A stretch of DNA of 37,240 bases, from positions 1 to 37,240 of the forward strand of contig JAUXEQ010000001.1 of NCBI GenBank assembly GCA_030620455.1, in the 5' to 3' direction. Below are positions 5,632 to 25,108 of this stretch, piece after piece. Position 1 is the first letter of the stretch. Every line of letters begins with the position of its first letter. The translations under genes were made by a program, and so were the position numbers. Origin of the DNA: a bacterium. GTDB lineage: Bacteria; UBP14; UBA6098; B30-G16. The notes beneath the pieces are model-generated. The model searched no databases. It saw only the letters and a program-made list of their open reading frames with translations, and was not told the origin of the DNA.

Positions 5632-5666
5632 AAATTAAAAAGGGAACCTTACATACTGGTTCCCTT
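5632..5666 (-). terminator. Rho-independent terminator after the TPR-PEGA-NHL gene
   Basis: On the minus strand AAGGGAACC (5666-5658) pairs with GGTTCCCTT (5649-5640... plus-strand arms 5641-5648 and 5658-5665) around a 9-nt loop. The hairpin is followed by TTTTAATTTA and lies 30 nt after the stop at 5696. Confidence 0.6.
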
Positions 5667-5695: not shown

Positions 5696-8600
5696 TCACG
5701 GTTTATAATTATTGTCCCAACTTCCTTTAAGAATCTTCAGACCAGAATTATTAGCAATATAAACAATGGATTCAGGTCCTTCACCTCTCTGAGTGATTGC
5801 TCTGGGTGAAAGAAGGTCTTCAGATGCAACAGAAATAGGAACAAATTTATCAGTATATTTGATAAGATTGTTAAGAACATAATCGCTAACGAATATGAAA
5901 CCATCAGGTGTAACATAAACTGAAGATGGCTGCGTTTGATTTTCTAATTCAATTTCGTCAACATATTCACCTGCGATAGTAAACCTAACAATCTTGCCCT
6001 TTCCTATATCAGCTACAAGCAAGTAATCCCCATTAACCGCCACAGAAATCGGATGAATTAATTTCCTTCCGCCAAATTCCTTTTTGAAAGATGGTCCTTC
6101 AAAAATCAGAATTCTATGATTACCTGCATCTGCAATATAATACTCATCCTCAAAAACTGTAACACCAGCAGGCATCCACAAGGGAGCACTACCATATTTT
6201 TCTCCGCTATATGCTATGACATTTATGTCGCCAATTTTCTTAACCGATTCTATATCGCCCTCTTTGGTAATAATCTCCTCTGGAGTTTCCTCAGATTCGA
6301 TCAGCATTGCTGCGCCTGTTCCTTTAGGTTTAAACGTAATAACCTGATGCCTTTTGGGATCTGTAATAACGACCTTGCTGCCATCTAAAGCCAAACCGCC
6401 TATTGCAGATATTTTCAATTCTCTAAGTTTATATTCTTCTTTTCTTTTACCCTGATTATCAAGCCTTTGAAGTCTATTATTAGCAGCATTTGCCACGTAT
6501 GTTTCCAATCCATTCGAGGCAACCGCCAGTGATTTTCTCGTGCCAGAAATATTTCCGGTGGAAGTATATCGCACAGCTTTCTTAAGGTAGATTGTGATTC
6601 TTTCAGATCTGCTTATCTTTATTTGGCTGTCCCAGAGATAGAAACCTTTCTTTTTCACAGTCAGATCGTGAGTGCCTCTATTAGTAGTGATTTTGTAAAG
6701 GGATTTTTTACCAGATACAGGTTTTGCAAGTTCAGGTTTATCATCGAGAACTATTTCTTCTTCGCCTCCAGGTGGCTCAATTGCAATTTCTATAGTCACA
6801 TGAGTTTCCGGAGGTCTATCGGGAACGAGTTCATCGATATCGGGATTCTTTTTAAATTTTGAATCCTTTTGCCATATATAAAGACATTCTCTTTTCTTTC
6901 GACCTCTCTCTGCTTCCTCATCCACAAGATTTTCATATGTCATAGGTGCATCTCTATAGGATGCTAAAGCCCCAGCTGCTGAAGCGTCTCCACGACAACT
7001 AAGCTTTGATAGTTCAAGATTAGCCTTTTGATACCAGTAATTTGTTCTATCTCTTACAGTTTTCAAAATCGATCCCAACGATTTAGCAGCACTACTGCAG
7101 TTGTTTCTCTCAATTTGAATTAGTGCATAAGTATAAGCTGCTCTGATGTGACCCTTTGCTTTGAGCGAAGACAAGATTGGCGAAGCTTTGTCATATTGGT
7201 TAATGTTAAAATAACCAATGCCTATAACATAATTAGCCTCGTTTTTATATGGAGAAGTACAACCGGTAAGCACAGTTTTGGCTTGTTCAATAGTACCGGG
7301 GGCTTGATCTTTTTCCTGAACAGTTGCAAGCTTCACTAATGAAACACCTTTTAAGAATCTCGATCTATTTTTTACTTCACTCGAAACAGATGCATTAAGA
7401 ACTCTATTAAATGCATGGATGGCAAAGTTTAACGCAATCCTTCTCTTATCACCAGCAGTTTCAATACCTTTTTGGAGAAAATACTTACCAGCTTCGATGT
7501 ATTTTTCTGCATCTTTAGGCAAACTAATGCCTGCCAAAGCCATAGCAGCATCGAAAACGCTTACATCTCTCTCTTTGCCAAGGCTTGTTTCAATATTTAT
7601 TAGGAATCGTCTTATAGAAACAAGATTACGTACATCTGATGTAAGATAATTATAGTATTGACCTTTAGGATTCTCAAGAGCTTTAAATATCTCATCCGCG
7701 CTAGCAAGTAGATTAACATTATCAGTTTTAACACCCATCCAAAACTTACATTCAGCTTGTCGGAACTTCGCATCAGCACGGAGTTCCAACATTCGTGTGC
7801 TTCTATCGCTTCCTGTTTTTGCAAGAAAATTGCTGATTTTTGTATTTGCTGCTGGATATACACTGTTAATAAAATGAACCCATCCAAACCAATATATTGC
7901 ATCATTATCCGTAGATATGATTCGCCCGAGATTATTCGTAGCAGATCTCGCAGAACCATTATAGATCAAGAAATTTAGCAATGAAGCATCACCAATTCGT
8001 CTTAACACATCTTTCCCTATACTAACATTATTCCTTAGATCAGCCATTTTCTCAATGGATTTATCTAATTGATCCTTTTGACCTATCGACCCTAAAGTAA
8101 GCATATCAACCAGTTTACTAAGCACTGTAAGGTCCCGAATATCCTTTTGAGTTCCTGCAGCTGTGATTAACTTGTTGTTTAAATCTAATGAGTTTTGAAG
8201 TTTCCCCTCAGTAGCGGCGATTTTGCTTTGGCTCGATAGTTTATACTTTTTCCAATTATCATCAGAAACTCGAAGATAAACCCTTGCATTTGTATAGATA
8301 CATACAGCATCCATATATGTCGAAGCGAGAGCCAATCTCTCATTAGACGATTTCTTAGCCACATCAAATGCTTCTTTTGCATCCCCAAACAGCTTTATGG
8401 CATTACTATAGGTAGCTTCTTTAAAAGTTTTGATAAATCCTAACGAAAATCTGCTAAAACCCAGCAAAAAATATCCATTATCGATAAGCTCCTGAACATC
8501 CTCTGCATTTGCTTTAACATTATCATCCTCAAGAAAAGAAATAAAGTCACCTATTGCATTTTCAAGTAACCTTGCTTCTGTTCTTTCTGACGCAGTTAAT

Positions 8601-9001
8601 TGTGCCATTCTGAAAGAACATAATGCTCTGATATAAAGAGAACGAATATATTCTTCACCCAAGATGTTCAAGTTTTTGAAAGCCATCGCAGCTTCTCTAA
8701 ATGTTTCTGCCGACTTCTCGAGCATGTCGGAGTCCTTCCCAATTCGACCTACATAATACTGTGATGTACCGAGAAAATATTTTGAATAAGCTTCATCGGA
8801 TGGTGGAAGAACACCAGACAAAAGTTCTTCAAATGCTGTAACTGCATTCTCGAATTCCGCTTTAGACTCATCGAATTTTTCAAAATTATAAGCCTTGACA
8901 CCCTTATCGAGTATCTGAGTGGCTGTACCCAAGTCCATTTCTTGTGCAAAAACTACACTTATAACCATTAAAGGTATCATTAAAAATAACAACCTGCGCA
9001 T
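5696..9001 (-). CDS. Secreted 1101-aa TPR-like helical repeat / PEGA-like / six-bladed NHL beta-propeller protein
   Basis: SD AAGGGGG lies 7 nt before the ATG. Signal peptide MRRLLFLMIPLMVISVVFAQE. About 700 aa of helical TPR-like sequence follow. PEGA-like strand set: YKITTNRGTHDLTVKKKGFYLWDSQIKISRSERITIYLKK. Six NHL-type blades: TYVANAANNRLQRLD, VVITDPKRHQVITF, YYIADAGNHRILIF, LLVADIGKGKIVRF, IFVSDYVLNNLIKY, VYIANNSGLKIL. Confidence 0.8.
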   Translation of the reverse strand: MRRLLFLMIPLMVISVVFAQEMDLGTATQILDKGVKAYNFEKFDESKAEFENAVTAFEELLSGVLPPSDEAYSKYFLGTSQYYVGRIGKDSDMLEKSAETFREAAMAFKNLNILGEEYIRSLYIRALCSFRMAQLTASERTEARLLENAIGDFISFLEDDNVKANAEDVQELIDNGYFLLGFSRFSLGFIKTFKEATYSNAIKLFGDAKEAFDVAKKSSNERLALASTYMDAVCIYTNARVYLRVSDDNWKKYKLSSQSKIAATEGKLQNSLDLNNKLITAAGTQKDIRDLTVLSKLVDMLTLGSIGQKDQLDKSIEKMADLRNNVSIGKDVLRRIGDASLLNFLIYNGSARSATNNLGRIISTDNDAIYWFGWVHFINSVYPAANTKISNFLAKTGSDRSTRMLELRADAKFRQAECKFWMGVKTDNVNLLASADEIFKALENPKGQYYNYLTSDVRNLVSIRRFLINIETSLGKERDVSVFDAAMALAGISLPKDAEKYIEAGKYFLQKGIETAGDKRRIALNFAIHAFNRVLNASVSSEVKNRSRFLKGVSLVKLATVQEKDQAPGTIEQAKTVLTGCTSPYKNEANYVIGIGYFNINQYDKASPILSSLKAKGHIRAAYTYALIQIERNNCSSAAKSLGSILKTVRDRTNYWYQKANLELSKLSCRGDASAAGALASYRDAPMTYENLVDEEAERGRKKRECLYIWQKDSKFKKNPDIDELVPDRPPETHVTIEIAIEPPGGEEEIVLDDKPELAKPVSGKKSLYKITTNRGTHDLTVKKKGFYLWDSQIKISRSERITIYLKKAVRYTSTGNISGTRKSLAVASNGLETYVANAANNRLQRLDNQGKRKEEYKLRELKISAIGGLALDGSKVVITDPKRHQVITFKPKGTGAAMLIESEETPEEIITKEGDIESVKKIGDINVIAYSGEKYGSAPLWMPAGVTVFEDEYYIADAGNHRILIFEGPSFKKEFGGRKLIHPISVAVNGDYLLVADIGKGKIVRFTIAGEYVDEIELENQTQPSSVYVTPDGFIFVSDYVLNNLIKYTDKFVPISVASEDLLSPRAITQRGEGPESIVYIANNSGLKILKGSWDNNYKP

Positions 9002-9090
9002 GATTATTCCCCCTTATTTTAAATTTTACTCTTCTAATATCTATTAATTAAAACGATCTATTCCAATCTTGTATTATTTTCAGATTATCC

Positions 9091-9117
9091 AGGAGGGGTT
9101 AAATATTAACCCCTCCT
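9091..9117 (-). promoter_or_regulatory. GC-rich 11-12 bp hairpin between the lipoprotein gene and the TPR-NHL gene
   Basis: AGGAGGGGTTA(A) at 9091-9102 and (T)TAACCCCTCCT at 9106-9117 form a perfect inverted repeat around a 3-5 nt loop. The hairpin starts 8 nt after the stop at 9126. On the minus strand it has no U-tract after it (the T-run precedes it). Confidence 0.5.
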
Positions 9118-9125
9118 TAAAAAAA

Positions 9126-9674
9126 TTAATACATCTCAGCCCGTACAACTGTAAATCCTGTTTGTCTAACTATATCCCTAACGCTTCCAAGTTTGGGATC
9201 AGGTTTCCCCGGTTCAGCTTCGATAAGCCTAATTTGTGATAGATCAACCTCAATTCGCTTTTTTGCAACATCTACTTTAATTCTTATAGGACCATAACCA
9301 TATCGAGTATAAATCCAACTTTGTAGAACCCTAATAATGTAATCATTGAAACGAGGTGAACCGGTTCTTTGAAGTATAGATGGCGATATTACAGCCGAGT
9401 CTACTATGTATTCGACAATCAAGGGTTTATCTGGAATACCATAGCTTTCCTTAACAATATCAAATTCCACATAATCAGTAGCATTAGCAATCCTAAATAT
9501 CGGATCTGGTGGAGGAGTATATCTCAAAGTAATTTTACCTAATCCACCCCTAAAAATAATTTTAGGTCCTTCTGGCAAGTTAATATACGACTCACCACCT
9601 TTACTTGCACAGCCTAACATAACGATGGACAAAAGAATGATTATTAACCCTATTGTAATAAATTTCCTGTTCAT
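9126..9674 (-). CDS. Lipoprotein with a possible TonB C-terminal-like domain (function uncertain)
   Basis: ATG overlaps the upstream exbD stop (ATGA), with AGGAGG 8 nt upstream. Signal peptide plus lipobox: MNRKFITIGLIIILLSIVMLGCASKGG. The segment VISPSILQRTGSPRFNDYIIRVLQSWIYTRYGYGPIRIKVDV resembles the TonB_C pattern (SSG..lD.aal.av..W.f.P....v.v.f). The position after exbB-exbD-exbD is where tonB usually sits. Confidence 0.5.
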   Translation of the reverse strand: MNRKFITIGLIIILLSIVMLGCASKGGESYINLPEGPKIIFRGGLGKITLRYTPPPDPIFRIANATDYVEFDIVKESYGIPDKPLIVEYIVDSAVISPSILQRTGSPRFNDYIIRVLQSWIYTRYGYGPIRIKVDVAKKRIEVDLSQIRLIEAEPGKPDPKLGSVRDIVRQTGFTVVRAEMY

Positions 9675-10240
9675 TCTGATCTCCTCCTTCTGCGAGTACT
9701 TTTGATCTCAACTTTGAGATCAGAAAGTGTTCCTCTTACCCATGCAATTTTAGCAATTCCAATCGAGTGCATATACCCAGTAATCTTCACTACTTCGCTA
9801 TAAGGAAGATCACCGGGAGAACGAATAACAACCGCTGGATCATTGTCCCTAACCTCATCAAGGAATCCTTTAAGTCCCTGATCGTTATATAGCACTCTAT
9901 ATCTGAGGACAGCATTTCTAAATGCTCTGTATGCTGCTACATTCTTGACTAATGCCCGTTTATCAGAGAACCATTTATAGAATTCAGCCGATTCGTCGTT
10001 TCCCTGCAATACAAAATAGTCTAAACCTCCCATCGGATTTTTATACATCTGTATCAAAACCGACGCCTCAGAATCTCCACTTTTAGGTGTAGGGAGGTTC
10101 ATCAATCCCTCCACCTGAGGAGCGGACTTAATCGCAGGCATAATGGACATTGTAACCAAGAAAAATATCATTAATTGGAAAATAATATCTACCATTGAAG
10201 TAAGTTCCGCTTCTGGGAGAGGTTCTGCTCTTCTTCTCAT
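9671..10240 (-). CDS. exbD: ExbD/TolR-family biopolymer transport protein (paralogue 2)
   Basis: N-terminal motif AELTSMVDIIFQLMIFFLVT, a single TM with the conserved Asp. 189 aa. SD GGGAGGTG. Confidence 0.85.
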   Translation of the reverse strand: MRRRAEPLPEAELTSMVDIIFQLMIFFLVTMSIMPAIKSAPQVEGLMNLPTPKSGDSEASVLIQMYKNPMGGLDYFVLQGNDESAEFYKWFSDKRALVKNVAAYRAFRNAVLRYRVLYNDQGLKGFLDEVRDNDPAVVIRSPGDLPYSEVVKITGYMHSIGIAKIAWVRGTLSDLKVEIKSTRRRRRSE

Positions 10241-10252
10241 TATTGCACCTCC

Positions 10253-10798
10253 CTATAGCTCATAAGTTTTCTTGACTTTTGAAAATCGAAACCCGACAAC
10301 CTCAATAGAATCTCTATCGCAAAATTCCATTATATCAAGAATATATCCGAATGGTGTATCTTTATGTGCTCTAAGTTCAAGTCTTGGTGGAAGATTCCCC
10401 ATAAATATATCATCTTCAATTTTCTTTTGAAGTTTTCTTTTTGCGACTTCAAGCGAAAAAGGACCTCGAGAATGAGTTGAATCAGCCTTAGCATCCCTAA
10501 CAGTAGAAATATCTGGATCTAGGATATAAGCTCCTAGTTCACCATTAAAAGGTTTTTCATTAATTTTATTAATGTGAAGAAGATATCCTTCGGATAACTC
10601 ATCCTGAACAGAAGCCAACTTTTCAACCGGAGGTAATTTCGGGAGATCCTTTGTTTCTTCACCTCTAACAGCCGCAGTAGCCTGTTGAATTAAAGTTCCA
10701 AGAGCCATTGTAACCATAAAGAATATCAGAAGCTGGAAAATAATGTCAATCAAAGAAGTCCATTGAGCCTTAGGTAGTTCTTCAGTTCTGTTTTTCAT
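10253..10798 (-). CDS. exbD: ExbD/TolR-family biopolymer transport protein (paralogue 1)
   Basis: N-terminal motif AQWTSLIDIIFQLLIFFMVT with the conserved TM Asp. 181 aa. SD GGGAGGTG lies 7 nt before the ATG. Confidence 0.85.
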   Translation of the reverse strand: MKNRTEELPKAQWTSLIDIIFQLLIFFMVTMALGTLIQQATAAVRGEETKDLPKLPPVEKLASVQDELSEGYLLHINKINEKPFNGELGAYILDPDISTVRDAKADSTHSRGPFSLEVAKRKLQKKIEDDIFMGNLPPRLELRAHKDTPFGYILDIMEFCDRDSIEVVGFRFSKVKKTYEL

Positions 10799-10812
10799 TA
10801 AAGTTCACCTCC

Positions 10813-12156
10813 CTATGCCTGGTTAAGAATCTCGGTCATCAATTCTTCCCATTTACCGAAGATCCAATCCACTTTTCCACGGTAATAATAGTGTATTAAC
10901 ATCATCGGAATTCCAAACATCAAACCTACGATAGTTGTAATAAGAGCTATATAAATGCCACCTGCCAATTGTGGTACTATTACTGTAAGTTGAGCACTGG
11001 GATTTATTCTAATAGTTTCCTCAATTTTACCGAATGCCGATCTAATGCCAACTACTGTACCAAAGAGCCCCATCATAGGTTCAATAGAACCAATAGCCCA
11101 TAATCCGGTAACTTCCCAACCCTTAAGTTCGTCAAGTTCTTTTAGAACTGTGTTTTCAGCAGCTCGGTCCATCTCCTGGGAAGAATAGAAACTATTCCTA
11201 TTAGATCTATGATTTTCAAGGGCTGCAAGCATAACTCTTATTGTAGCATAATCTAAAGGTTTTTTGGGAAGCTTAATCCCGGGAACACCGTTCCGACAAA
11301 TTTCTATTGCCTTTTCAACATTTGGAAGACCTATATCCAACCACAGCTTCTTTGCCATTTCTTCTTCGAGATGTGCATCGGCTTTGATATATTCTTCCTT
11401 ACTCGTAAAATCTTCGGGACTGAGCGACATGGATTCCATAGCCTTTGACCAATATTTAGCAACTTCTCGAACGAAGACATTGCCTTTTGCACTTTGCATT
11501 TCCGTCTTTCCCACTCTATCAACAGGAAATATTCGGTATATAAGTCCGGGTTTATTTGGTGGAAATACATTGGCCAACCATAAACGTCTCCAAATTAAAA
11601 TCCATATAAGAATACCAAAAAAGAATAGCAGATGCTGAGGTATCATAAATACCATACTACCTTCCTTCACAAATTTCCAGTACCATTTAAAAATTCCCTT
11701 TCCTTCTGTTTTTATTGCTACGTGCTCGTGAAGGATACCCTCAGCGAAATCCCATCTGGATTGGAAATCGCCACTAGCTAAAACAACCCGCCACCAATAC
11801 TGTTTTCCAAAGTCCAACCCATCAAATGTATAGGACAATTCACCAGTTTCGCTTCTATTAACAATATTAGAAAAATTAGAATCAACCGCAACCTCAGCTC
11901 TGAATGTCAATCCAAGTTCAGCGGGGTCAGCAACTTTATCCCATTCACCGTAACTCATATTTCTTGCATCATACATTTTCTTGTAAACTTCCCAACCTAA
12001 AACAACCTGAAGATTACCAGCTTCATCCTTAAGGTTATCTGCGAGTGTAATATGAACCCATACGGAGTCCATGTTCTCTTCTTGCGCATTCACCGATCCC
12101 GGAATAAACAGAACTGCTGCCAATAGAACAGTTAGAAACGAAAGTCTCCTTAACAT
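10813..12156 (-). CDS. exbB: MotA/TolQ/ExbB-family proton-channel subunit with cleavable signal peptide and N-terminal FN3-like periplasmic domain
   Basis: C-terminal channel motifs GLWAIGSIEPMMGLFGTVVGI and LAGGIYIALITTIVGLMFGIPMMLIHYY. SD AAGGAGG. N-terminus MLRRLSFLTVLLAAVLFIPGSVNAQEE is followed by ~125 aa ending SYTFDGLDFGKQYWWRVVLASGDFQSRWDF, then TM1 (LLFFFGILIWILIW). Confidence 0.85.
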   Translation of the reverse strand: MLRRLSFLTVLLAAVLFIPGSVNAQEENMDSVWVHITLADNLKDEAGNLQVVLGWEVYKKMYDARNMSYGEWDKVADPAELGLTFRAEVAVDSNFSNIVNRSETGELSYTFDGLDFGKQYWWRVVLASGDFQSRWDFAEGILHEHVAIKTEGKGIFKWYWKFVKEGSMVFMIPQHLLFFFGILIWILIWRRLWLANVFPPNKPGLIYRIFPVDRVGKTEMQSAKGNVFVREVAKYWSKAMESMSLSPEDFTSKEEYIKADAHLEEEMAKKLWLDIGLPNVEKAIEICRNGVPGIKLPKKPLDYATIRVMLAALENHRSNRNSFYSSQEMDRAAENTVLKELDELKGWEVTGLWAIGSIEPMMGLFGTVVGIRSAFGKIEETIRINPSAQLTVIVPQLAGGIYIALITTIVGLMFGIPMMLIHYYYRGKVDWIFGKWEELMTEILNQA

Positions 12157-12342
12157 CAGAACCTCCTTTAATTATTGTTAGATAATTCCATTCAATTTAA
12201 TTTTATATCGATATCACTTCTCATTATCAAAACCGAACCATAAGTTTGTATATATAAGATTCTAACTATTTAATTTACAATATTAATACATTTCTATAAA
12301 TCATTTCAATCTTTGAACCGAATATCCATATAACAATACATA

Positions 12343-14148: not shown

Positions 14149-14186
14149 TGCATTTGCCCCCTATTTGTTATCGATAATAATTTTTT

Positions 14187-17100: not shown

Positions 17101-18800
17101 TTACCTGCGGAATCCTTAACAACAACCCAAATATGCATCCAGTCACCCTCTGAAAACCCACTGAACCCAAAGCTAACTGTATCATCAAAATCACGCCATT
17201 CAGCGTCAGGAATGTTAGCCAAATCGGCATAATTCTGTGTAAGATACATTTTATAGAATGGTGTACTCCCCGGTTCAGGTACAATGTTAATCAATACATT
17301 CTCAACATCGGTCGAATCGAAAGGCAATCTTGTCGATAAATCAAGAATAGTTACTGAGCGTAAGGATGGTGGGTTAGTATCGAGAATAATATTACCTATT
17401 TTAGATGTAGAATAGTTACCAGCAAAATCCTTTAGCTTAACATAGAACTCTCTTAACCCGTCACCAGGATTCATTATATAAAGATAATGTACAACTGGAA
17501 GGTATTTAAACACCTGTAAATTATCGAGGAAAGTTGGACCTTCAGATACATACACACTTTCAACACCCGATGCATAAACATCACCGAATCGTGGTGGGTC
17601 TGTTGCATTAAATGGATCGACCCATATATTTACACTGTTAGTATAACCGCCTTCTGCAGGGACATCTGTGGGATGTGGTGTTAGTGTCGTATCAGTCGAT
17701 GTTACTCTGTTAAATTCCGGGTCTCGAGTATCGATGTTAATTGTAGCCTTAGGAGCTAAAGCATCCTCAATATTTTCCGCTGAGTCGATAGCCTGAAGGA
17801 AAATTTCATAATGTCCATCGGATACTGGACTAAATAAAAGACTATCGTTAATGTTAAGAGCACCAAAATATTCTCTGACAGTATATTCTGTTATAAGTCC
17901 AAAATCTTTTTTATACAGTAGTTTAATAATATCCACACCACTATATAAATCACCACCATCGAAAAATAGAGAACAGTAAGGCACGGTGTAATACGTCAAA
18001 AGCCCCGATGTTTCTATATTCGACCAAGGTTTTTCCGTATCGAATCTTGTCCATGTCTGCATATCGGCTAAACCACCAGGAACGCTGTTGGGATCTATTG
18101 TATTACCCAACCTATCCTCACCTGCAAGAAAGAATTCATAGTATCCATCACCACCGACAGATGCGGAATTAAAACTCACTGAAGAAGAAATCGGTGATCC
18201 ACCAGGAAGTGGTTCATCACCATACAGAGTCCATGTGGACATGGAATCGGTTCTGAAGTATATGTGAATTTTTCTTACGTCGCTAACAATTGCATCTTCT
18301 GTCTTGAAGAATACGTCCTTTCGAACAACATTAGTCCATCTATTTAATGTATCTATAGCAACAGTTGGTGGTGTATTATCTTGTCGAGAACATGTATATC
18401 GAGACCAATCGGAAAAAACCCATATTCTCCCTGATACCCTTTGCCTATATTGTATTCTATAGCAATATCTAACTCCACTTCGCAATGCATCATCCGCAGG
18501 ACTGGCATCAAGATTCAATCCTATTGTATATTTGTTCCCAGGAGCACTCGATGTGGGAATAGGGAAAATAGAATAAATTGGATCAACTAAATCTGGGAAA
18601 ACAGGAATTCCATCTGCATCAACAACCTGGATATGAAAAGCAATTGTCGGATCGATGGCAGCACTGGGTGGTAATGACCAGCTCAGTTCGCAAGTAGTAC
18701 CCTTTGTATAATCAGGAAGAAGATTCAATGTCGGAGCTGGAATCCCCAAAGCTAAGCCGACAAGGGCAAATATGCATCCTATTATTATATTCCACCTCAT
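14187..18800 (-). CDS. 1537-aa surface protein: N-terminal FN3-like module, about 12 tandem Ig-like modules, T9SS-type/FlgD-Ig-like C-terminal sorting domain
   Basis: SD AAGGAG lies 8 nt before the ATG. Signal peptide MRWNIIIGCIFALVGLALG. Module boundaries D-[TQ]-x-x-P recur (DNTPPTV, DTEKP, DTRDP, DTNPP, DTRNP, DTKRP, DQTLP, DITPP, DTITP), as do late-strand D-x-A-G-N motifs (KDFAGN, KDSAGN, QDSAGN, KDNAGN, MDGAGN, VDSAGN). C-terminus: VINFPNPFDPSTNEITHIML...IEIYDMFGNLV...IIWKGENDEGEVVANGGYIAVV. Confidence 0.85.
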   Translation of the reverse strand: MRWNIIIGCIFALVGLALGIPAPTLNLLPDYTKGTTCELSWSLPPSAAIDPTIAFHIQVVDADGIPVFPDLVDPIYSIFPIPTSSAPGNKYTIGLNLDASPADDALRSGVRYCYRIQYRQRVSGRIWVFSDWSRYTCSRQDNTPPTVAIDTLNRWTNVVRKDVFFKTEDAIVSDVRKIHIYFRTDSMSTWTLYGDEPLPGGSPISSSVSFNSASVGGDGYYEFFLAGEDRLGNTIDPNSVPGGLADMQTWTRFDTEKPWSNIETSGLLTYYTVPYCSLFFDGGDLYSGVDIIKLLYKKDFGLITEYTVREYFGALNINDSLLFSPVSDGHYEIFLQAIDSAENIEDALAPKATINIDTRDPEFNRVTSTDTTLTPHPTDVPAEGGYTNSVNIWVDPFNATDPPRFGDVYASGVESVYVSEGPTFLDNLQVFKYLPVVHYLYIMNPGDGLREFYVKLKDFAGNYSTSKIGNIILDTNPPSLRSVTILDLSTRLPFDSTDVENVLINIVPEPGSTPFYKMYLTQNYADLANIPDAEWRDFDDTVSFGFSGFSEGDWMHIWVVVKDSAGNISNAAHDSICYNPFNGIVELISIKDINGPDLTGTYTDSTRVNVTVSYNDDIHYVILNDGLIEVRYDVEPLPPGEDTTIVHVFSEGDGERCIIARGYSEYGPFTDPDTRCIILDTRNPILDDFKVLDISTGFNASDTSEIADTHYTNKANVKAIFSAYDRAIPGFPDGTGIFMRKIQVDALEIIDPWNFAEPLNFDLPGSDGSYRVNGFVQDSAGNWSLEKYFEITLDTKRPEISLVTLRDLNSGSSDQTDSLTVIVETDATDDPYIPAYIAFFENPGHWPGDLSTRWRKFNSTGIDTYTFLEEPGDTKTLYIAVKDNAGNISLMANASIRYSKEISASMTLYDLDRPRITQYTNSTIVGIKFDVTGQTGESYYLAMDTMPIPPEDPRWIEYLHGTDVTHTLPAGDGIKVVYGWIRSVAHTVSPMFKDSIILDQTLPDIPEGFTVWDTTSFEMWPNIWKAHMGWANEREIYASIPLATDELSGVDSLHFLGPFASTLWDPGRSYLPIDSGIVVRYPNDSIELIIDTTEAAFRIIGGAMDGAGNWRNSVVNGGYDITPPNFSFNPLEFYDTTRFPDTIPMYIVEPHLWKVCFHVAEIDTKLCSVYNRSWDVGEDDYNVFFPLADLLDPGILYKIGVVVVDSAGNASIVDSLKIWNKFDFKVVAPNDTLDSEFTNSKSVITVINTVDEPDSMRFAESKEALHSRSWIKFSRTSEFEFASLVNEIKNVFCQVKYRSYKSPVNHDDIILDTITPTMEKIEARDEDSGDPNWSDKSDVQITIFDPEDTYPGLVYALMVDESPDFDYNVQILQFSPDNPVVLYHAADEPYYPVGAVLSDEHMDALREGARLLYAQVLDRAENPSETRTYKIIIDPSDKEVINFPNPFDPSTNEITHIMLKAKEMGAIIKIEIYDMFGNLVWTGEKHLKSDSRAGEIIWKGENDEGEVVANGGYIAVVDFGDKVVMRKIAVWKGIERE

Positions 18801-18840
18801 ATTTTTATCTCCTTTTCATTATTATTTTCAATTATTAATA

Positions 18841-21800
18841 TTATCTGATTAAAATGACATTACTTATTGAACTGAATTTTTGCCCAGAGGCATCAACTAT
18901 GTATACTCCGCTGGGTAAAGCACGATCTGAATTATCTTTTCCATCCCACACAAGATTCAATATGCCCGGTTGAACAATGTCACTGTAAAGTTCTCTAACT
19001 GTTTTGCCTTTGATATCTCTAATGGAAACTGTCATCATATCCTTAGAGGGTATTGTAATCGCAATATTTACTTGAGCATTGAATGGATTAGGATAGGAAT
19101 TAATATTGAAGACTAAAGGCTTTGGATCGTAAGTAACTTCATATTTACCTGCTTGAAGTGGATATACATCGCCTTCATTAAGCTCATAATGAATACCCAT
19201 TCCTGAAATTTCCCATCTACCGTCAAGCAAACTTTGAACAGTTAGGTTAATCTCTTCGGGAACCTCGACAGTCCAATTCCCTGAATATGACAATCCTTTT
19301 AAAAGCATTTCATCCTCGTCACCAACAATATAAGACGGATAAGTCGTGGTCGGTAACGGAGGCATAATCACGTCATAACCATCGATGGCAAATTTTAACT
19401 TTTGGCAACCAAAAACTAAACTTGCATCGATAGGAAAATTAACAAAGCCCTTCAAGGATCCGCTATATCGAATATTTACTGTGGCATCTGTGGACAAAAG
19501 CATGAAATAACCTTTTCCAGCCTGCAACTCTTCAGCACTCACAAATCCTGAATCTGGATGATAACCTAAGACATTAGTTCGAGGATAAAAAGCTCCCAGA
19601 GGATTAACAGTAAAAACAGCATTACAAGCTGGGTCTCTTTTCGATAACCCTCCAATTATATGCCAACCACTACCGGTCAATCTTAACGAAAGCGATGGTA
19701 TGCTATATCCATCAATAGATTGATAGTGATCAACAATGCTGAGAATCCAATATCCAACTCCAACTTCGAGATCATAGGCATTTTCATACATTTTAGTTGC
19801 CGTATTATATTTGAAACAGTTGCCCAAAGGAATGTATGGGAATATTTCGTCTAACCTCATACTTGAAGGTATTAAAGGAAGACTAATTAAATTCCAACCT
19901 CTATAAAAATGGATCGTATCACTTTTACCTCTAAATAATGTATCTTCAAACTCAATCCATTGTGAATATGCACTTTCGTTACCATATTGGTCAATTGTAG
20001 CAATATGGAAAAATCTAAATGGTGCACCAACAATGATCGTATCTGGAAGTCTAATCGTGTCTCGTCTAATAGGTTTTTCTCTCCAAACAAGAAGAGAGTC
20101 ACCGGTGCATAACCATTCCGCTGCTGCCGTATGTTCTACTCTATACTTATTGAAATCAGACCAGCCAGGTGGTCCATAATCTGAAGGTGTAATATCTGTC
20201 CATGTAACAACAATCCAAATTTTGCTATCATGCGCTATATCCATATATACAGTATCAATTTCCACTGGATATGGTGGTGTATGAGGTGCAAATCCTTTTT
20301 GCCGTGGTTCAGATAGATCTTCTGATAAATTACCAAAACTATCGGCTACAACAATTGTATAGTAATTAGCTCTGAAATTATCCATAGGATCTGGATCGTC
20401 ATCGATAAATTCGTAAGAGGGTGCCCCGCTGTGAGATATCGATGCAATTAGGTCACCAATATTACCTTCAATACTCGATCTATAAATATCATAAGATTCA
20501 ACACCAATACCATCGTCAAAAGAACCGGGAAATGTAACGCTTACCATAAGTTCGTTCGTGCATTCAGCAATAGATTTAAGATCGTTAGCCATTACAGCCC
20601 GAGGTGGTGTTTGATCAAAATGTGTGACAACATAATTAGAAACAGCCTCGTTATTAATATTATCCCAGACCATAACTCTAAAGAAGTATGGTCCTTCAGA
20701 TATTCCATGAATAACGCATGTTAATGTATCCCAATCTGAACAATCGTAATCATCTGGATTTGAGAGCGCGATGTCATGAATCGACGAGAACATATAACTT
20801 ACTATTTCATCGGTAAATCCACTTCTTCGAGACTGTTCTACCATCAAACGAGTGATATCACAATGACTTGTATCTATTATTGTTAAAACAACAGAGTCAG
20901 CTTCACTCCATCGAGGTAGATCAATGAGTATCGGTGGAGCAACGCTTTTATCCGATTTCGTGCGAGTTCCCCCACCGAATACATAATGACCGACATGGTC
21001 AAAAAACAGGAGATAATAATAGTATTCTTTCCCATCAATAAGTCCTTCACCCACGTCCCACCAATAATAGTATCCTGTATCTTTATATTCTTCAATATTA
21101 AATACTTTAATATAAGAACGAGTAGTATCTAATATTGCCTCATCTTCAAGAGTATCGAATTCGTCTGCCAGAAGTCTATAAAGTCGGATTTCGGCTAATC
21201 CCGTTCCGCAATCAATTTCATCCTCAAAAGAAGTCCAAAATCGGATTACAATATCCCCATCATCATTGGGATTCGCAATAATGCTATCCGCACCTCTTAA
21301 AGGACCATTTATATCCGCAATAACGGTTTCTCTTTTATTATACCACTCTAAAATAGTATCGGGGTCTGTTGACCTTGCTCGTATTCCGAATATATATCTA
21401 TGGCAATCTTCCATAGCCCAATCGTTATGAGGTTGATCCCGCCATGCTGAAAGAAATGTGTCCCCCTCAGCTACATCTATTAATCTGTATTGATATTGCA
21501 TTTCCGGTCTTGGATAACAATGTTTGCTACTTTTTACTGTAAAATTGTCGGTAGTAATAACATTCGGAATTGGTTCGAGAATAGCGCACATTGGCATACC
21601 GCACTCCCCTGGACCTGATGTTACTACTTCATGCCATGGATTACCAGTTCTGGGATGATAACCAAGCGGTCCAGGAGGTAATCCTGCGCTGTCGAAAGGC
21701 ACAACGACATAATAGTATCTCTTTCTAAGTTCTATCGATTCATCTGTATAGAAATACATTATTGATCCGTCCTCGAAAACCGAATCGATAGCAAGGGTAA

Positions 21801-22323
21801 TATTATCGATAACACTAACTTTGCGTGGATCTGTAAACCGATATATTTTGTACATATGTATTGCAGATGCATTATCCTCAGCTCTTTCCCAGATAAGCTC
21901 GACCCTCTGAGGTGGATCACCACAGTAAAGAGCAATGAAGTATGGCACTACAGACGGTGGTTTTATGTCGTGAGTGATATCGATGGGAGCTGACCAATCT
22001 GAAGTATCTGCTCCAAAGGTTGCTCTAACCCGATACCAATATCTTTCACCGTCGTTGGCATTCAAAAATTTGCAAGTGTCCGCTTCAATGAATACTGTTG
22101 TTGAATCTGAACCACCAAAACTTCGATGTATGCGTCTAAACTGATATTTAGTTCCCGTGGGATTTCCGCTGCATGCCGAGTCAACTTTTGCAGTTATCGA
22201 AGCATATGGATAATAATAATGTCCTAATACTGGTGGATTCATAAGTTCTGCACATAAAGGTCCTATCTGCCCCAAAGCTAAGGAAAATGCCAAGAGCATT
22301 GTCAAAAAAACCAGCTTCCTCAT
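18841..22323 (-). CDS. 1160-aa surface protein: multiple FN3-like modules, GWNL/GYW domain, T9SS-type/FlgD-Ig-like C-terminal sorting domain
   Basis: The track ORF starts at 22395 and overlaps the M23 gene. The internal ATG at 22323 follows AAGGGGGAG and gives a clean signal peptide, MRKLVFLTMLLAFSLALGQ. FN3-like ends: YWYRVRATFGADTSDWS, YYYVVVPFDSAG, YIFGIRARS, YFFRVMVWDNINNEA, NYYTIVVADSFGNLS, FFHIATIDQYGNESAYS. Then FYRGWNLISLP...VGVGYWILSIVD...GKGYFMLL. C-terminus: INSYPNPFNAQVNIAI...VSIRDIKGKTV...LVWDGKDNSDRALPSGVYIV. Confidence 0.85.
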   Translation of the reverse strand: MRKLVFLTMLLAFSLALGQIGPLCAELMNPPVLGHYYYPYASITAKVDSACSGNPTGTKYQFRRIHRSFGGSDSTTVFIEADTCKFLNANDGERYWYRVRATFGADTSDWSAPIDITHDIKPPSVVPYFIALYCGDPPQRVELIWERAEDNASAIHMYKIYRFTDPRKVSVIDNITLAIDSVFEDGSIMYFYTDESIELRKRYYYVVVPFDSAGLPPGPLGYHPRTGNPWHEVVTSGPGECGMPMCAILEPIPNVITTDNFTVKSSKHCYPRPEMQYQYRLIDVAEGDTFLSAWRDQPHNDWAMEDCHRYIFGIRARSTDPDTILEWYNKRETVIADINGPLRGADSIIANPNDDGDIVIRFWTSFEDEIDCGTGLAEIRLYRLLADEFDTLEDEAILDTTRSYIKVFNIEEYKDTGYYYWWDVGEGLIDGKEYYYYLLFFDHVGHYVFGGGTRTKSDKSVAPPILIDLPRWSEADSVVLTIIDTSHCDITRLMVEQSRRSGFTDEIVSYMFSSIHDIALSNPDDYDCSDWDTLTCVIHGISEGPYFFRVMVWDNINNEAVSNYVVTHFDQTPPRAVMANDLKSIAECTNELMVSVTFPGSFDDGIGVESYDIYRSSIEGNIGDLIASISHSGAPSYEFIDDDPDPMDNFRANYYTIVVADSFGNLSEDLSEPRQKGFAPHTPPYPVEIDTVYMDIAHDSKIWIVVTWTDITPSDYGPPGWSDFNKYRVEHTAAAEWLCTGDSLLVWREKPIRRDTIRLPDTIIVGAPFRFFHIATIDQYGNESAYSQWIEFEDTLFRGKSDTIHFYRGWNLISLPLIPSSMRLDEIFPYIPLGNCFKYNTATKMYENAYDLEVGVGYWILSIVDHYQSIDGYSIPSLSLRLTGSGWHIIGGLSKRDPACNAVFTVNPLGAFYPRTNVLGYHPDSGFVSAEELQAGKGYFMLLSTDATVNIRYSGSLKGFVNFPIDASLVFGCQKLKFAIDGYDVIMPPLPTTTYPSYIVGDEDEMLLKGLSYSGNWTVEVPEEINLTVQSLLDGRWEISGMGIHYELNEGDVYPLQAGKYEVTYDPKPLVFNINSYPNPFNAQVNIAITIPSKDMMTVSIRDIKGKTVRELYSDIVQPGILNLVWDGKDNSDRALPSGVYIVDASGQKFSSISNVILIR

Positions 22324-22381
22324 AAAGCTCCCCCTTAATTTATCAATTTTTTTGGATATTTTACTAAACTTAACTTTGCAT

Positions 22382-23647
22382 CTATCCTTGTTCAAGTGAA
22401 AAATCCTTTTTTAAAGAATTATTTGAATTTGCATTGACAAAAATCTGTACTCCTTTAATAATTGAATCTGCATACTTTTTAAATATTTCCAAATATTTTT
22501 TCTTTACTGGTGGTCCAGTTGGAAAGGCATATTTTTCTGGATTAACAAACTTTCCGTTTACTTTAACTCTGTAATCGAGATGCGGACCAGTGGAAAGCCC
22601 AGTTGAACCGACATATCCTATCACCTGTCCTCGTTTTACTTTCACACCTTTCCTGATACCTCGGGTAAAACGCGATAAATGTCCATACATAGTTTCTATA
22701 TTATCCTTACCGGGGTGTTTTATATGGATAAATTTACCGAACCCTCCTTTCCATCCGCAATATACTACAGTGCCAGAACCCGATGCGGATACAGGAGTAC
22801 CAATAGGTGCAGCATAATCTATACCCTTATGTGGTCTGTATATCTTCAGTATCGGGTGAAAACGGCGATAAGAGAAATGAGAACTTATTCGACTGAAAAC
22901 GAGAGGGCATTTTAAATGAGATTTTTTCATCGACTTTCCTTTAAGATTATAATATCCCTCAGTTCCAGTAGGATCAGAATAATGTATAGCAGTATAAGTT
23001 TTCACTCTATCAACTAGTTTTTTAGTTGCCTTATCTCTTTCTTTGTAAGATTTACTATACTCCGCTAAGAGAATTTTTCCAATTCCCACAATTTCATCCC
23101 TGAAAATAAGTTTCTCGTATACTATTTTAAATCGATCCCCTTTGCGAGTCTCAGTGTTAAAATCGATATCATAAGCAAGGACATCTGTGAAATCGTAAAT
23201 AGCTCTCATTTCAATGGATTTGCTAAACATAGACTCGGATAATGTATTCTCAACAACTCCCTGTGCAGAGAAAATTACTTTTCTCAAAGGTATTGTATCC
23301 TTAGCGACTTGAAATGTATCTCCTATTTTCTTTACAGTATATTTTTCCCAACGAGAACGAGTAACCTCAAATTCTAGAAGATTCTCCAAGCTATCATATT
23401 CAATCGAGAAATGATCCCCAGGATAAATCTTTCCCATATCGAGAACCGATGAAATGCAAGAGATCGCTTGATTAACAGCCTTAAACGGAATGCCACGATC
23501 AATTAGAACCTGTGAAAGGGTTTGATTCGTATATACATCGCCTTGAGCAATGCAAGTCATCCCCTCAATTGGTTCAATCGAGATAAGCAGCATGTTTAGT
23601 ACTGCAAACATTGCGATCGAAGAAATTTTATACTTATAAGAACCCAT
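22382..23647 (-). CDS. M23-family (LytM/MepM-like) peptidoglycan metalloendopeptidase
   Basis: Catalytic motifs HKGIDYAAPIGTPV, MYGHLSRF and GSTGLSTGPHLDYRV. N-terminal membrane anchor plus a MepM/Csd3-type N-domain. No obvious SD, so the exact start is uncertain. Confidence 0.88.
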   Translation of the reverse strand: MGSYKYKISSIAMFAVLNMLLISIEPIEGMTCIAQGDVYTNQTLSQVLIDRGIPFKAVNQAISCISSVLDMGKIYPGDHFSIEYDSLENLLEFEVTRSRWEKYTVKKIGDTFQVAKDTIPLRKVIFSAQGVVENTLSESMFSKSIEMRAIYDFTDVLAYDIDFNTETRKGDRFKIVYEKLIFRDEIVGIGKILLAEYSKSYKERDKATKKLVDRVKTYTAIHYSDPTGTEGYYNLKGKSMKKSHLKCPLVFSRISSHFSYRRFHPILKIYRPHKGIDYAAPIGTPVSASGSGTVVYCGWKGGFGKFIHIKHPGKDNIETMYGHLSRFTRGIRKGVKVKRGQVIGYVGSTGLSTGPHLDYRVKVNGKFVNPEKYAFPTGPPVKKKYLEIFKKYADSIIKGVQIFVNANSNNSLKKDFSLEQG

Positions 23648-23683
23648 TTACATCGTTTTAAAAAATGAATCAACATCCTATTA

Positions 23684-25108
23684 TTATCTTATAATTTTAT
23701 CTAAAGAAATTTCCTTTTCAAAAGCCTTAACAATAAAATAATAGACATCGGTTTCTGAATCGCACCAACTTTTCGACAGAATACCAGCTTGCATACACAC
23801 TCTATCTAATCGCATCGATGGTGATATATCAGAATCTTCCCATGGCATTACAATACCATCTTTAGTTCCCTGTCGAATATAAATACCCAAATCAGGACTA
23901 GGTTCCTCAACTCCCTCGACTATTTTAGTTAACCCAACAACCAATGTAGCATTCTCGAACGTTCTTCTTCTACTCGACGTGTGTTTAAGAGAATATTTCA
24001 AAGACTTACATAAGCTTTTTGCCGTCTCGGAGAAAGGTCTTGTTGAGAAAAGATCCCCATTTCTCACTAGAATTTTGTCATCGATTTTAATAGTGATAAA
24101 TACTCCACATCGAAGATTGGAAATCCTTCGTGGAAGAACCGGTGGATTCTGTCCAATTAGAATATTATAAATGTATTTTAATAACAAATCTCTATCTTTA
24201 TCATTAATTGTTTCTAAAGCTAAAGTATTATGAGATTTATATGTTTTTCTTACATCAATCCACGCTATCGAGGCTATCCCACAAATCTCTGCGGTTGGAA
24301 ATCCTGAATTTACATACCCCTTAACGACAATTCCTGTATCGGCACCAAGCGCTCTTACTAATTTAATTGAAAATGCTGACCCCCAAGGGTTAGAAAGATT
24401 ATATTTCCCAGTTTCAAAATTTTCTACAATGACTTTCTCCATCATAGCTGTCATTATTACCATTGTCGACCTGAAAGTGCGAGTAACTTCCCTTGCATCT
24501 TCGCCCTTTGCCAGATTTGAAACATTTACAATAAGCGGATCATATTCTGAAAATAAATGGGAACAACTGTTAGCAATTCCATCGAGGACGTTATCATCTT
24601 CCTTACCAACAAGGAAAACTATAAGAGGCGTCGATCTAAACGAGTATTGTGTAAAGGGTAATTGAAACCAAAAACTTTTTGGTGGACATTCGTCAACTAA
24701 TTTTATTTTGGGTATTCTTTCACTAATCTTTTTCACGAGTGTAGAGTCAATAATCTGAGTGCCTAAAGGAGTTTTGAAGTATTTGAATTTCATAATTGAA
24801 ACCCCCTTTTGACCCGGTGGAGCTTCCACAATAACAACAATCAACTTTTTCCTTTCCTGAGATGCCAAATTATATGCTGCACCAATAACAGTTCCGGAAA
24901 AAAGATAGCTCTCTTCAGGCACTAAAATTCCAATAATATTACCCCTAAGTGGTCGAGGTTTAACCATATTAATATAATCTGTAATTTGATCCCAAAGGAC
25001 AGTGGGATCAGAGGGGAAAAGACCATTTTCAGCACAATATTCTTCAACTAAGTTCTGGCTAAAAACTACTCCCAAAAAAGCCAAAACCAACAATATGTTT
25101 AATTTCAA
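23684..25108 (-). CDS. Secreted Memo-like / AMMECR1-like fusion protein with degenerate active-site motifs
   Basis: TTG start at 25108 lies 9 nt after GGAGG. Signal peptide MKLNILLVLAFLGVVFSQ. The N-terminal half is collinear with Memo (GILVPEESYLFSGTVIGAAYN; LIVVIVEAPPG; TPLGTQIID; PLIVNVSNLAKGE). The C-terminal half is collinear with AMMECR1 (CGVFITIKIDDKILVRNGDL; LGIYIRQGTKDGIVMPWE; CMQAGILSKSW...YYFIVKAFEKE). Confidence 0.7.
   Translation of the reverse strand: MKLNILLVLAFLGVVFSQNLVEEYCAENGLFPSDPTVLWDQITDYINMVKPRPLRGNIIGILVPEESYLFSGTVIGAAYNLASQERKKLIVVIVEAPPGQKGVSIMKFKYFKTPLGTQIIDSTLVKKISERIPKIKLVDECPPKSFWFQLPFTQYSFRSTPLIVFLVGKEDDNVLDGIANSCSHLFSEYDPLIVNVSNLAKGEDAREVTRTFRSTMVIMTAMMEKVIVENFETGKYNLSNPWGSAFSIKLVRALGADTGIVVKGYVNSGFPTAEICGIASIAWIDVRKTYKSHNTLALETINDKDRDLLLKYIYNILIGQNPPVLPRRISNLRCGVFITIKIDDKILVRNGDLFSTRPFSETAKSLCKSLKYSLKHTSSRRRTFENATLVVGLTKIVEGVEEPSPDLGIYIRQGTKDGIVMPWEDSDISPSMRLDRVCMQAGILSKSWCDSETDVYYFIVKAFEKEISLDKIIR

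Follow-up and report, generated by a model that had tools for sequence, protein, structure and literature searches.

A conserved gene block that places an ExbB/ExbD-type motor beside a PorV/PorQ-family barrel and two giant proteins with T9SS-like C-terminal domains in UBP14 and related bacteria

To our knowledge, all known ion-driven 5:2 motors (MotAB, ExbBD, TolQR, GldLM, AglRQS and ZorAB) are defined by the partner to which they are coupled. In type IX secretion systems (T9SS), the C-terminal domains (CTDs) of PorU and PorZ are retained, with PorV holding PorU and PorQ holding PorZ, and Flavobacterium pairs a cargo gene, sprB, with a dedicated barrel gene, sprF, an arrangement that recalls the locus described here. 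PorU and PorZ belong to the context of an attachment complex (PMC11285876). In Myxococcus xanthus, the Agl-Glt machine combines a TolQ-like pentamer with two different TolR-like subunits (AglR5-AglQ-AglS) and has TonB-CTD-like domains that bind periplasmic TPR proteins (PMC11761067), and in Fibrobacter succinogenes an operon with ExbB, ExbD and TonB components has been tied to the handling of cell-surface polymers and is up-regulated on cellulose (PMC6851124). Here we analyse a block of ten genes within a 37,240-nt stretch of DNA (the window, which is an entire contig; about 37% G+C) from a bacterium of the lineage UBP14, in which an ExbB/ExbD-type motor adjoins a PorV/PorQ-family barrel and two giant proteins with T9SS-like CTDs.

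The conservation of the block gives good support to a functional tie between the motor on one side and giants and barrel on the other. The reading we prefer, and to which we give roughly an even chance, is that these genes encode a dedicated, vertically inherited trans-envelope machine, driven by the proton-motive force, which acts through the PorV/Q-like barrel on two CTD-anchored giants. The sequence-only reading of the window had already proposed the motor as the dedicated energiser of the adjacent giants. In every related locus, synteny ties the motor genes to those of giants and barrel, and this part of the proposal stands; the giants, however, do not behave as variable cargo. The ten genes follow, in 5' to 3' order.

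23684..25108, minus strand: Memo-AMMECR1 fusion, 474 aa, first gene of the block (Pfam Memo, 5e-14; weak AMMECR1 match)
22382..23647, minus strand: M23 peptidoglycan endopeptidase, 421 aa, with Csd3_N2 and Peptidase_M23 (4.9e-31), ShyC/ShyA/MepM-like
18841..22323, minus strand: giant1, 1160 aa from the ATG, with signal peptide, FN3-like repeats, two copies of a 'GWNLISLP...GYW' domain and a CTD of FlgD-Ig / T9SS type-A-like character
14187..18800, minus strand: giant2, 1537 aa, with signal peptide, Ig-like repeats of the Big_13 type (about ten; D-T-x-x-P ... DSAGN) and KIAVWKG at the end of its CTD
12343..14148, minus strand: outer-membrane PorV/PorQ-family (FadL-like) beta-barrel (about residues 25-300) with a helical TPR-like domain of about 300 aa (NF033709)
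10813..12156, minus strand: ExbB/TolQ-class stator subunit, 447 aa (MotA_ExbB, 3.8e-18, confined to residues 308-437)
10253..10798, minus strand: ExbD/TolR paralogue 1, 181 aa, with transmembrane Asp and some 40 extra residues inserted in its periplasmic part (Pfam ExbD, 1.2e-09)
9671..10240, minus strand: ExbD/TolR paralogue 2, 189 aa, with transmembrane Asp and a 4-nt overlap with the next gene (Pfam ExbD, 2e-10)
9126..9674, minus strand: TonB_C-like lipoprotein, 182 aa (lipobox Cys22; FRGGYG..I.Y.PPP.PIF segment; globular TonB-CTD-like fold)
5696..9001, minus strand: secreted protein, 1101 aa, with helical/TPR-like repeats over about 680 aa, a small beta domain and, at the C-terminus, an NHL beta-propeller of six blades (NHL, 1.1e-11)

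What ties these genes together is, above all, their conservation. Window proteins were compared by tblastn with loci from metagenome-assembled genomes (MAGs), and gene order was scored wherever a contig reaches. An eight-gene core (giant1, giant2, barrel-TPR, ExbB, ExbD, ExbD, lipoprotein and TPR...NHL) keeps identical order and orientation in loci from about 21 species-level MAGs, as far as the contigs reach, with ExbB identity down to 45%, and independent metagenome contigs show the same arrangement. The whole ten-gene block is syntenic in three distant relatives (loci L166, L167 and L168), where small or negative intergenic gaps are found as well. Even two remote variants (L169 and L170; 20-26% identity) carry the same core, made up of one or two giants of about 1500 aa with a FlgD_ig/type-A CTD, a PorV-family barrel-TPR protein of 660-680 aa, a long ExbB, two ExbD-like genes, a 200-210-aa protein and an NHL protein of about 1075 aa; the system is thus older than the clade of the window. 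Conserved adjacency to CTD and PorV-like genes, the loss of which the sequence-only reading had named as one of three results that would together refute it, is kept in all related loci and in the two deeper variants, whose ExbB identity is 26%. Chance adjacency was rejected on this synteny. Beyond the block, neighbours vary by locus (sbcD; GT2/VTT/SusC-like receptor; second M23; PPDK).

The motor protein itself defines a sharply bounded subfamily. Its 57 near-full-length homologues (445-470 aa, 45-95% identity) are followed by a drop to E values of about 1e-9 and to ordinary ExbB proteins, and a profile search of 1.84 billion representatives returned 73 ExbB-like proteins at E ≤ 1e-30, including two remote full-length ones at 26% identity. 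In a scan of one genome per species the subfamily was present in 21 MAGs; among these, one is UBP14_UBA6098 and two had been labelled Zixibacteria by their submitters. Isolate names place two in the Guaymas basin, and those of two others follow the scheme used for MAGs in a Zodletone-spring study. Proteins with this FN3 N-domain and length were found only in the present gene context. We found no published description of this gene set, nor of a T9SS in Zixibacteria or UBP14.

Within the window, the listing of open reading frames (ORFs) places the ten genes in succession between 5696 and 25108, all on the minus strand, and reproduces exactly the intergenic gaps reported earlier (36, 58, 40, 38, 186, 14, 12, -4 and 124 nt) when the ATG of giant1 is taken at 22323. 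From this ATG the protein begins with MRKLVFLTMLLAFSLALGQ, a signal peptide; the ORF can be extended upstream to a TTG at 22395 (1184 aa). Two non-coding features were read from the sequence:

5632-5666, minus strand: hairpin resembling an intrinsic terminator, downstream of the last gene (GGGAACC, loop of 9 nt, GGTTCCC, T-run)
12157..12342, minus strand: AT-rich spacer of 186 nt between the barrel and exbB-like genes, ending AAAGGAGG before the exbB-like start

The hairpin, already noticed in the first inspection, was confirmed by eye as a stem-loop followed by TTTTTAATTT at about 5634-5664 on the minus strand. With 9 nt, the loop exceeds the limit of 8 in the terminator scanner, which for this reason did not list the hairpin; it listed 8 other terminator-like sites, none of which separates two genes of the block.

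The 186-nt spacer may hold an internal promoter, and it offers the most obvious seam for a reading in which the two halves of the block are functionally independent, an ordinary Ton operon of the Fibrobacterota-Chlorobiota-Bacteroidota (FCB) type beside T9SS cargo and its anchor. Giant and barrel pairs do exist alone in other phyla, and the layout of one ExbB, two ExbD and TonB is common in FCB bacteria. Nevertheless, the barrel-motor junction is kept in every locus over three deep clades while both outer flanks change, the ExbB subfamily was found only in this context and stands far apart in score from ordinary ExbB, and the spacer shrinks to just 2-48 nt in many relatives. We therefore regard independent halves as very improbable. 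In a sub-clade with 65-68% identity (L167 and L007-L012), an extra gene of 186 aa replaces the spacer (L167:11794-12354). Its product has a signal peptide, an FN3-like domain, a transmembrane helix and a basic tail, and is a paralogue of ExbB residues 1-160, so that a single-pass partner of the motor may exist in some lineages.

Which kind of motor is this? The MotA_ExbB and ExbD matches lie above the Pfam cut-offs, as in a Ton-type stator. Because the ExbB-like protein misses the equivalog cut-offs of both TolQ (57 bits against 221) and ExbB (39 against 206), it is best treated as a separate subfamily. In its AlphaFold model (pLDDT 76.8), a cleavable signal peptide and a seven-strand FN3-like beta-sandwich (residues 31-126) are followed by a linker, the first transmembrane helix (TM1), an enlarged and highly conserved cytoplasmic domain and two long transmembrane helices. 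A Foldseek search with this model placed cryo-electron microscopy structures of TolQ at the top (9ddm and 8odt; 2e-5), then those of ExbB (2e-4), with MotA and ZorA far behind. The TM2/TM3 motifs EPMxGLFGTV and ALITT are invariant in orthologues, and distant members give faint fn3 matches (two of them on contigs shorter than 3 kb). Since a hidden Markov model (HMM) of the ExbB N-domain matches neither giant, this domain is not a copy of a giant repeat. In each of the three clades, both ExbD paralogues retain the LIDIIFxLLIFF helix and, in it, the essential Asp, and the motifs SLIDIIFQLLIFF of paralogue 1 and SMVDIIFQLMIFF of paralogue 2 are likewise kept in all clades. One ExbB with an FN3-like N-terminus and two ExbD proteins had been read from the sequence alone; the beta-sandwich of the model and the Asp of both paralogues bear this out, and the combination would fit a 5:1:1 stator like the one modelled for AglR5-AglQ-AglS (PMC11761067).

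The best NCBIfam and Foldseek match of the motor protein being TolQ, the main rival to our preferred reading is a housekeeping one. The block would then be this lineage's divergent Tol-Pal-type system, with a TolQ/TolR motor, a TonB/TolA-fold protein, a beta-propeller in place of TolB and TPR modules in place of CpoB, serving outer-membrane tethering and, together with the M23 hydrolase, constriction; the giants would form a surface layer attached to it. The succession of TolQ-like, TolR-like, TonB/TolA-fold and beta-propeller genes does mirror tolQ-tolR-tolA-tolB. Nevertheless, all Tol equivalog scores fall far under their cut-offs, and the giants and the PorV-family barrel are conserved as strictly as the motor. 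We know of no Tol-Pal operon that includes two CTD proteins of 1100-1500 aa and a PorV-family barrel.

The barrel passes the NF033709 model of the PorV/PorQ family (110.9 bits against a cut-off of 90), the name that NCBI also gives to its orthologues ('PorV/PorQ family protein'). Because it reaches the equivalog cut-off of neither PorQ (82 against 220; E 3.2e-23) nor PorV (23.5 against 250), its sequence assigns it to the family and not to PorV or PorQ proper. Weak Pfam matches to UPF0164 and Toluene_X were also obtained, the former in several orthologues too. The helical tail, which is presumably periplasmic, contains two cysteines that are invariant in the orthologue alignment (C318 and C345), and this suggests a periplasmic disulfide. 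Its best PDB sequence match is CpoB (6g5s; 2.3e-4), and the L169 homologue matches the YbgF/CpoB model at 1.5e-9, both of which favour the Tol-Pal comparison.

Barrel-TPR fusions also occur in other lineages, in 'bacterium AH-315-J21' and in an Elusimicrobiota MAG (L164 and L165), each with a 1065-1193-aa protein with a weak FlgD_ig end encoded immediately upstream and overlapping by 4 nt; no motor gene was seen near these giant-barrel pairs. Their recurrence supports a direct partnership of barrel and CTD protein. The pairing of a large CTD protein with a PorV/Q-like barrel is thus general, and the addition of ExbBD, TonB-fold and NHL proteins is specific to the lineages of the block. In the Elusimicrobiota MAG (JBNJDT010000012.1, 4059-11464), two such pairs stand side by side, a Por_Secre_tail protein of 468 aa with a PorV-like protein of 308 aa and a FlgD_ig protein of 1065 aa with a barrel-TPR protein of 487 aa. 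Elusimicrobiota lie outside the FCB group, and T9SS genes are said to be absent there.

The sequence-only reading held that both giants end in a T9SS type-A/FlgD-Ig-like domain. For giant1 this is borne out by a FlgD_ig match above the cut-off (35.2 bits against 27), with Por_Secre_tail (24.8 against 27) and TIGR04183 (22.7 against 23) just under theirs; for giant2 the CTD matches are weak and below cut-off (CHU_C 19.6, FlgD_ig 16.3), its repeats matching Big_13 at 1.2e-12. Among 14 giant1 orthologues, all match FlgD_ig and 8 match Por_Secre_tail at E ≤ 0.01, and the giant of L169 passes TIGR04183 (23.4 against 23). Profile comparison relates the giant1 CTD to FlgD (1.5e-8) and to the CTD of PorU (6za2; 2.3e-5), and that of giant2 to the CTD of PorZ (PG93, 5m11) at 0.0067. 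When N[FY]PNPF[ND]P, a motif generic to the CTD of about 90 residues, back-translated and anchored on giant2, was scanned in metagenome contigs, it gave at least 600 stretches in the collection, with confirmed matches reaching at most the C-terminal 220 residues or so and most covering just the CTD (L085-L163). Going by these numbers, this FlgD-Ig-type CTD variant is very common among bacteria in the environment. When every ORF of the window and of 25 loci was searched with an HMM built from the CTDs of the giants, the giants were the sole carriers, in flanking DNA too short to weigh for or against a general T9SS.

The two giants had been described as adhesin-like cargo, a view that their orthology does not sustain. 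In tblastn searches giant1 is nearly full length in all loci at 25-37% identity with about 65 invariant positions, and giant2 is full length at 35-50% identity, more than 150 of its positions being invariant, reaching L170 at 25% identity over its full length. Variable adhesin cargo was therefore rejected. Both being full-length orthologues, the giants behave as fixed, structural parts of the system. In one locus (L021:67-4643, from the MAG 'Zixibacteria bacterium 4484_93') a frameshift or an assembly error divides giant2 between two ORFs. Elsewhere in the window, on the minus strand at 819-2651, lies a gene for a secreted protein of 610 aa with no Pfam match and no CTD, whose last 150 residues or so (YHIRRGWNLVSLPV...GIGYWILS) are homologous, at 25-38% identity, to the domain present twice in giant1 and its orthologues; this product could be another surface protein with a relation to the system.

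After the motor genes, the block encodes a small lipoprotein and a large repeat protein. The lipoprotein has no Pfam, NCBIfam or PDB sequence match, TonB_C included. Its AlphaFold model is confident (pLDDT 82, and above 90 over residues 60-150), and 12 of its 15 top Foldseek matches are CTDs of TonB-family proteins, including HasB and FusB, at target TM-scores of 0.5-0.6 and E values of 0.035-0.7; the best is 9dc4_T (E 0.035, probability 0.99, target TM-score 0.55). The TonB_C-like character proposed from the sequence is thus upheld at the level of fold, with modest E values. The TonB-like domains of GltG and GltJ were called at comparable Foldseek values (PMC11761067). A short PPPxP segment is present, and a lipid anchor, in place of a transmembrane helix, is indicated by the lipobox Cys22, invariant in 19 orthologues. 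In the Tol-Pal reading this protein would stand for TolA, yet Foldseek returns TonB CTDs and not TolA domain III, and a TolA-like transmembrane anchor or long helical domain is missing.

The 1101-aa protein has full-length orthologues at 31-57% identity by tblastn, and at profile positions of about 820-1040 it matches the NHL propellers of Pizza, TRIM71 and PknD down to 2.5e-59. The propeller is thus of the NHL type, and there is no TolB_N/PD40 match and no Pal (an OmpA_C lipoprotein), all of which speaks against Tol-Pal. Nearly all part identities of the sequence-only reading were recovered in Pfam and NCBIfam scans of window proteins; a PEGA domain in this protein was not, at E ≤ 0.01. Directly after the TPR...NHL gene, and sometimes overlapping it, most relatives have a gene whose product is a TPR protein (470-600 aa), and this gene is probably the eleventh of the cluster:

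L003:16698-18098: downstream TPR protein
L007:16859-18427: downstream TPR protein
L022:16248-17984: downstream TPR protein
L024:16275-18089: downstream TPR protein
L168:18363-19955: downstream TPR protein

The window and its closest relatives lack this gene and have the terminator and sbcD instead.

At its other end, the block begins with the Memo-AMMECR1 and M23 genes. In the three relatives in which the view, anchored on barrel orthologues, reached that far upstream (L166-L168; barrel identity 42-57%), both directly precede giant1 and overlap each other by 4 nt, and the M23 orthologues between Memo and giant1 share 42-57% identity. The M23 protein matches the ShyC model at 1.1e-56, below the model cut-off. 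A second, shorter M23 gene (about 300 aa) lies on the opposite (minus) strand just downstream of the cluster, at about 18.0-19.0 kb, in six loci (L003, L014, L015, L016, L022 and L024). The conserved endopeptidase keeps Tol-Pal-like housekeeping a live rival, and the second M23 gene, the position of ftsK as the next gene in the window and a strict, apparently single-copy vertical conservation that suits a core function all add to it. With the missing Pal, TolB and TolA features and the giants on the other side of the scale, we consider it unlikely. The Memo-AMMECR1 fusion scores 64.6 bits with NCBIfam AmmeMemoSam_B (cut-off 26) and starts with a signal peptide, MKLNILLVLAFLGVVFSQ, as read from the window translation. 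The AmmeMemoRadiSam trio is normally cytoplasmic; the signal peptide and the missing radical-SAM partner near this fusion are unusual for it. In L169, a stand-alone Memo gene (271 aa) is found about 1.6 kb downstream of the cluster.

A further alternative is energised uptake in the style of TonB-dependent systems. Here the giants would capture a substrate at the surface, like the surface glycan-binding proteins of polysaccharide utilization loci, the FadL/PorV barrel would admit a hydrophobic or polymer-derived ligand and the ExbBD/TonB-like module would energise its release or gating. The barrel does belong to the FadL/PorV/UPF0164 superfamily, FadL-like barrels of Treponema also have periplasmic helical TPR extensions (PMC8407342), and the exbB-exbD-exbD-tonB genes of F. 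succinogenes, with the same 1+2+1 layout, have been proposed to serve cellodextrin uptake (FSU_2400-2403; PMC6851124). In one sub-lineage, a SusC-like TonB-dependent receptor (CarboxypepD_reg, Plug and barrel) lies about 1.7 kb downstream of the cluster (L001:18061-21356 and L166:19936-21815), which means that this lineage needs a working Ton system. Nevertheless, that neighbour is confined to the one sub-lineage, and no Plug or TonB_dep_Rec gene, and hence no receptor with plug and TonB box, is found in the conserved block. Nor are catabolic enzymes, regulators or inner-membrane transporters linked to it in the loci examined, and a cell-wall endopeptidase is unexpected in an uptake locus. Nutrient-capture proteins usually diverge and swap, whereas the giants are conserved end to end. 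Uptake is in our opinion quite doubtful.

How would the dedicated machine that we prefer work? Modelled on AglR5-AglQ/AglS, an ExbB pentamer around an ExbD1/ExbD2 heterodimer in the inner membrane would turn proton flow into movement, and the five periplasmic FN3-like domains of ExbB would form a docking crown. Force would pass from the periplasmic parts of the ExbD proteins to the TonB_C-like lipoprotein, from there to the TPR...NHL protein and then to the periplasmic tail of the barrel. The barrel would keep the uncleaved CTDs of both giants at the cell surface, like PorQ-PorZ and PorV-PorU, and the M23 enzyme would open the cell wall for the complex to span. As output, two long surface proteins, always the same pair, would change their position or conformation in an energy-dependent manner, with possible uses in surface adhesion, gliding-type movement and energised display or release. 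The giants themselves would most likely cross the outer membrane through a translocon encoded elsewhere.

Several points weigh against this proposal. All carrier organisms are uncultured. The block has no translocon for proteins of 1100-1500 aa, a role that a 14-strand FadL-type barrel cannot serve, and the export of the giants therefore depends on genes outside it. The TonB-like lipoprotein lacks the transmembrane helix of the TonB/TolA type that normally couples to ExbB or TolQ, which makes the force path speculative, and its fold assignment has weak Foldseek values and no sequence profile behind it. The CTD scores lie only around the cut-offs of the T9SS models, with giant2 under all of them, and a FlgD-Ig fold need not be a sorting signal, so that the giants could be periplasmic instead. 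Finally, the strict, apparently single-copy conservation and the M23 gene would fit a housekeeping envelope system as well.

Where would the translocon be? Pfam and NCBIfam scans matched no window protein to the GldK/L/M/N, SprA, PorU or PorP families, in agreement with the first inspection, which had seen no such gene, or Sov, in the window, and no Pfam family for SprA/Sov, GldK/N, GldL/M or PorU is listed for the called genes of the annotated relative loci and their flanks. A canonical T9SS elsewhere in these genomes is quite possible, because, according to the literature, several FCB phyla other than Bacteroidota may have T9SS genes, and CTD proteins co-occur with the T9SS (PMC11285876). 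The bolder version of our proposal is a self-sufficient surface machine without SprA or GldKLMN, in which an old, autonomous module for CTD-barrel anchoring or display would be coupled to a 5:2 motor of the Ton/Tol type instead of GldLM, and the motor would make two fixed giant filaments at the surface move or deploy; we regard it as improbable.

The genes outside the block are those of an ordinary diderm (dapA/dapB, sbcD, ftsK, lspA, rpsO, pnp, rplU, bamA and tsaD). Among them, bamA is split into two overlapping ORFs on the plus strand (32052-33134, with POTRA repeats, and 33131-34384, with the Omp85 barrel); the tail of the first resembles out-of-frame sequence, and the split is probably an assembly frameshift, or else a genuine pseudogene or divided gene.

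If the dedicated machine exists, it would represent a new coupling for this motor class, with an ExbB/ExbD stator that has an FN3 crown and a lipid-anchored TonB-fold partner wired to a PorV/Q barrel and CTD proteins. It would bear on the evolution of the T9SS and gliding, namely on whether the CTD-barrel pair or the GldLM-driven translocon came first, on how force is transferred to outer-membrane proteins that have no TonB box, and on the cell surface of a poorly known sediment lineage, UBP14 and its relatives, recovered from hydrothermal sediment, sulfidic spring and waste-water samples. Should the self-sufficient version hold, the system would be a sister solution to the T9SS/gliding apparatus, built on a CTD-barrel module that is also seen as bare gene pairs elsewhere. 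In either case, the block is a compact and well-delimited gene set for structure prediction and heterologous reconstitution.

Taken by its parts, the block is closest to the attachment complex of the T9SS and to the exbB-exbD-exbD-tonB operons of FCB-type bacteria. With PorQ-PorZ and PorV-PorU of Porphyromonas gingivalis it shares a barrel of the PorV/PorQ family beside large secreted proteins with Ig-like CTDs, whose profiles match PorU and PorZ. It differs from the T9SS in that neither the window nor the fetched flanks showed a SprA/Sov, GldK/L/M/N, PorU sortase or PorP, in the 300-aa helical tail of its barrel and in a motor of the ExbB/ExbD type, not GldL/GldM. With FSU_2400-2403 of F. succinogenes, also an FCB-type diderm, it has in common one ExbB, two ExbD and a TonB-fold protein in a row. 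Unlike in that operon, its ExbB starts with a signal peptide and combines an FN3-like domain in the periplasm with an enlarged cytoplasmic one, its TonB-fold protein is a lipoprotein with no transmembrane anchor and no TonB_C Pfam match, and two giants, a PorV-like barrel, an NHL propeller, M23 and Memo-AMMECR1 are its constant companions.

The likeness to Tol-Pal lies in the TolQ-best motor, the order from motor to TonB/TolA-fold protein to beta-propeller, the CpoB-like TPR matches and the M23 enzyme; the block departs from it by lacking Pal, TolB_N/PD40 and the TolA architecture, by having two TolR paralogues and by adding the giants and the PorV-like barrel. The UPF0164 FadL-like barrels of Treponema pallidum resemble the barrel of the block in combining a 14-strand barrel of the FadL/PorV superfamily with a helical TPR-like tail (PMC8407342), whereas the treponemal genes have no linked motor or CTD proteins and their sequence similarity to the block's barrel is remote.

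For the mechanism, the closest working analogue would be Agl-Glt. Like Agl-Glt and Nfs, the block unites a heteromeric motor of the TolQR type, a TonB-CTD-like domain, a TPR protein, an outer-membrane barrel and a putative surface-protein output. This resemblance is one of architecture: no sequence link emerged beyond the shared TolQR/TonB_C/TPR superfamilies, and the Pfam and NCBIfam scans of window proteins returned no gliding-specific family, no Agl or Glt sequences having been compared. In contrast to Agl-Glt, the block has no cytoplasmic platform proteins, its barrel is of the PorV/FadL type, its surface parts are Ig/FN3 giants with T9SS-type CTDs in place of a vWA adhesin and its TonB-like protein is anchored by lipid and not by a transmembrane helix. 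The block is best filed as a variant of the energised envelope machines of the Ton/Tol/Agl type that uses outer-membrane parts of the T9SS type.

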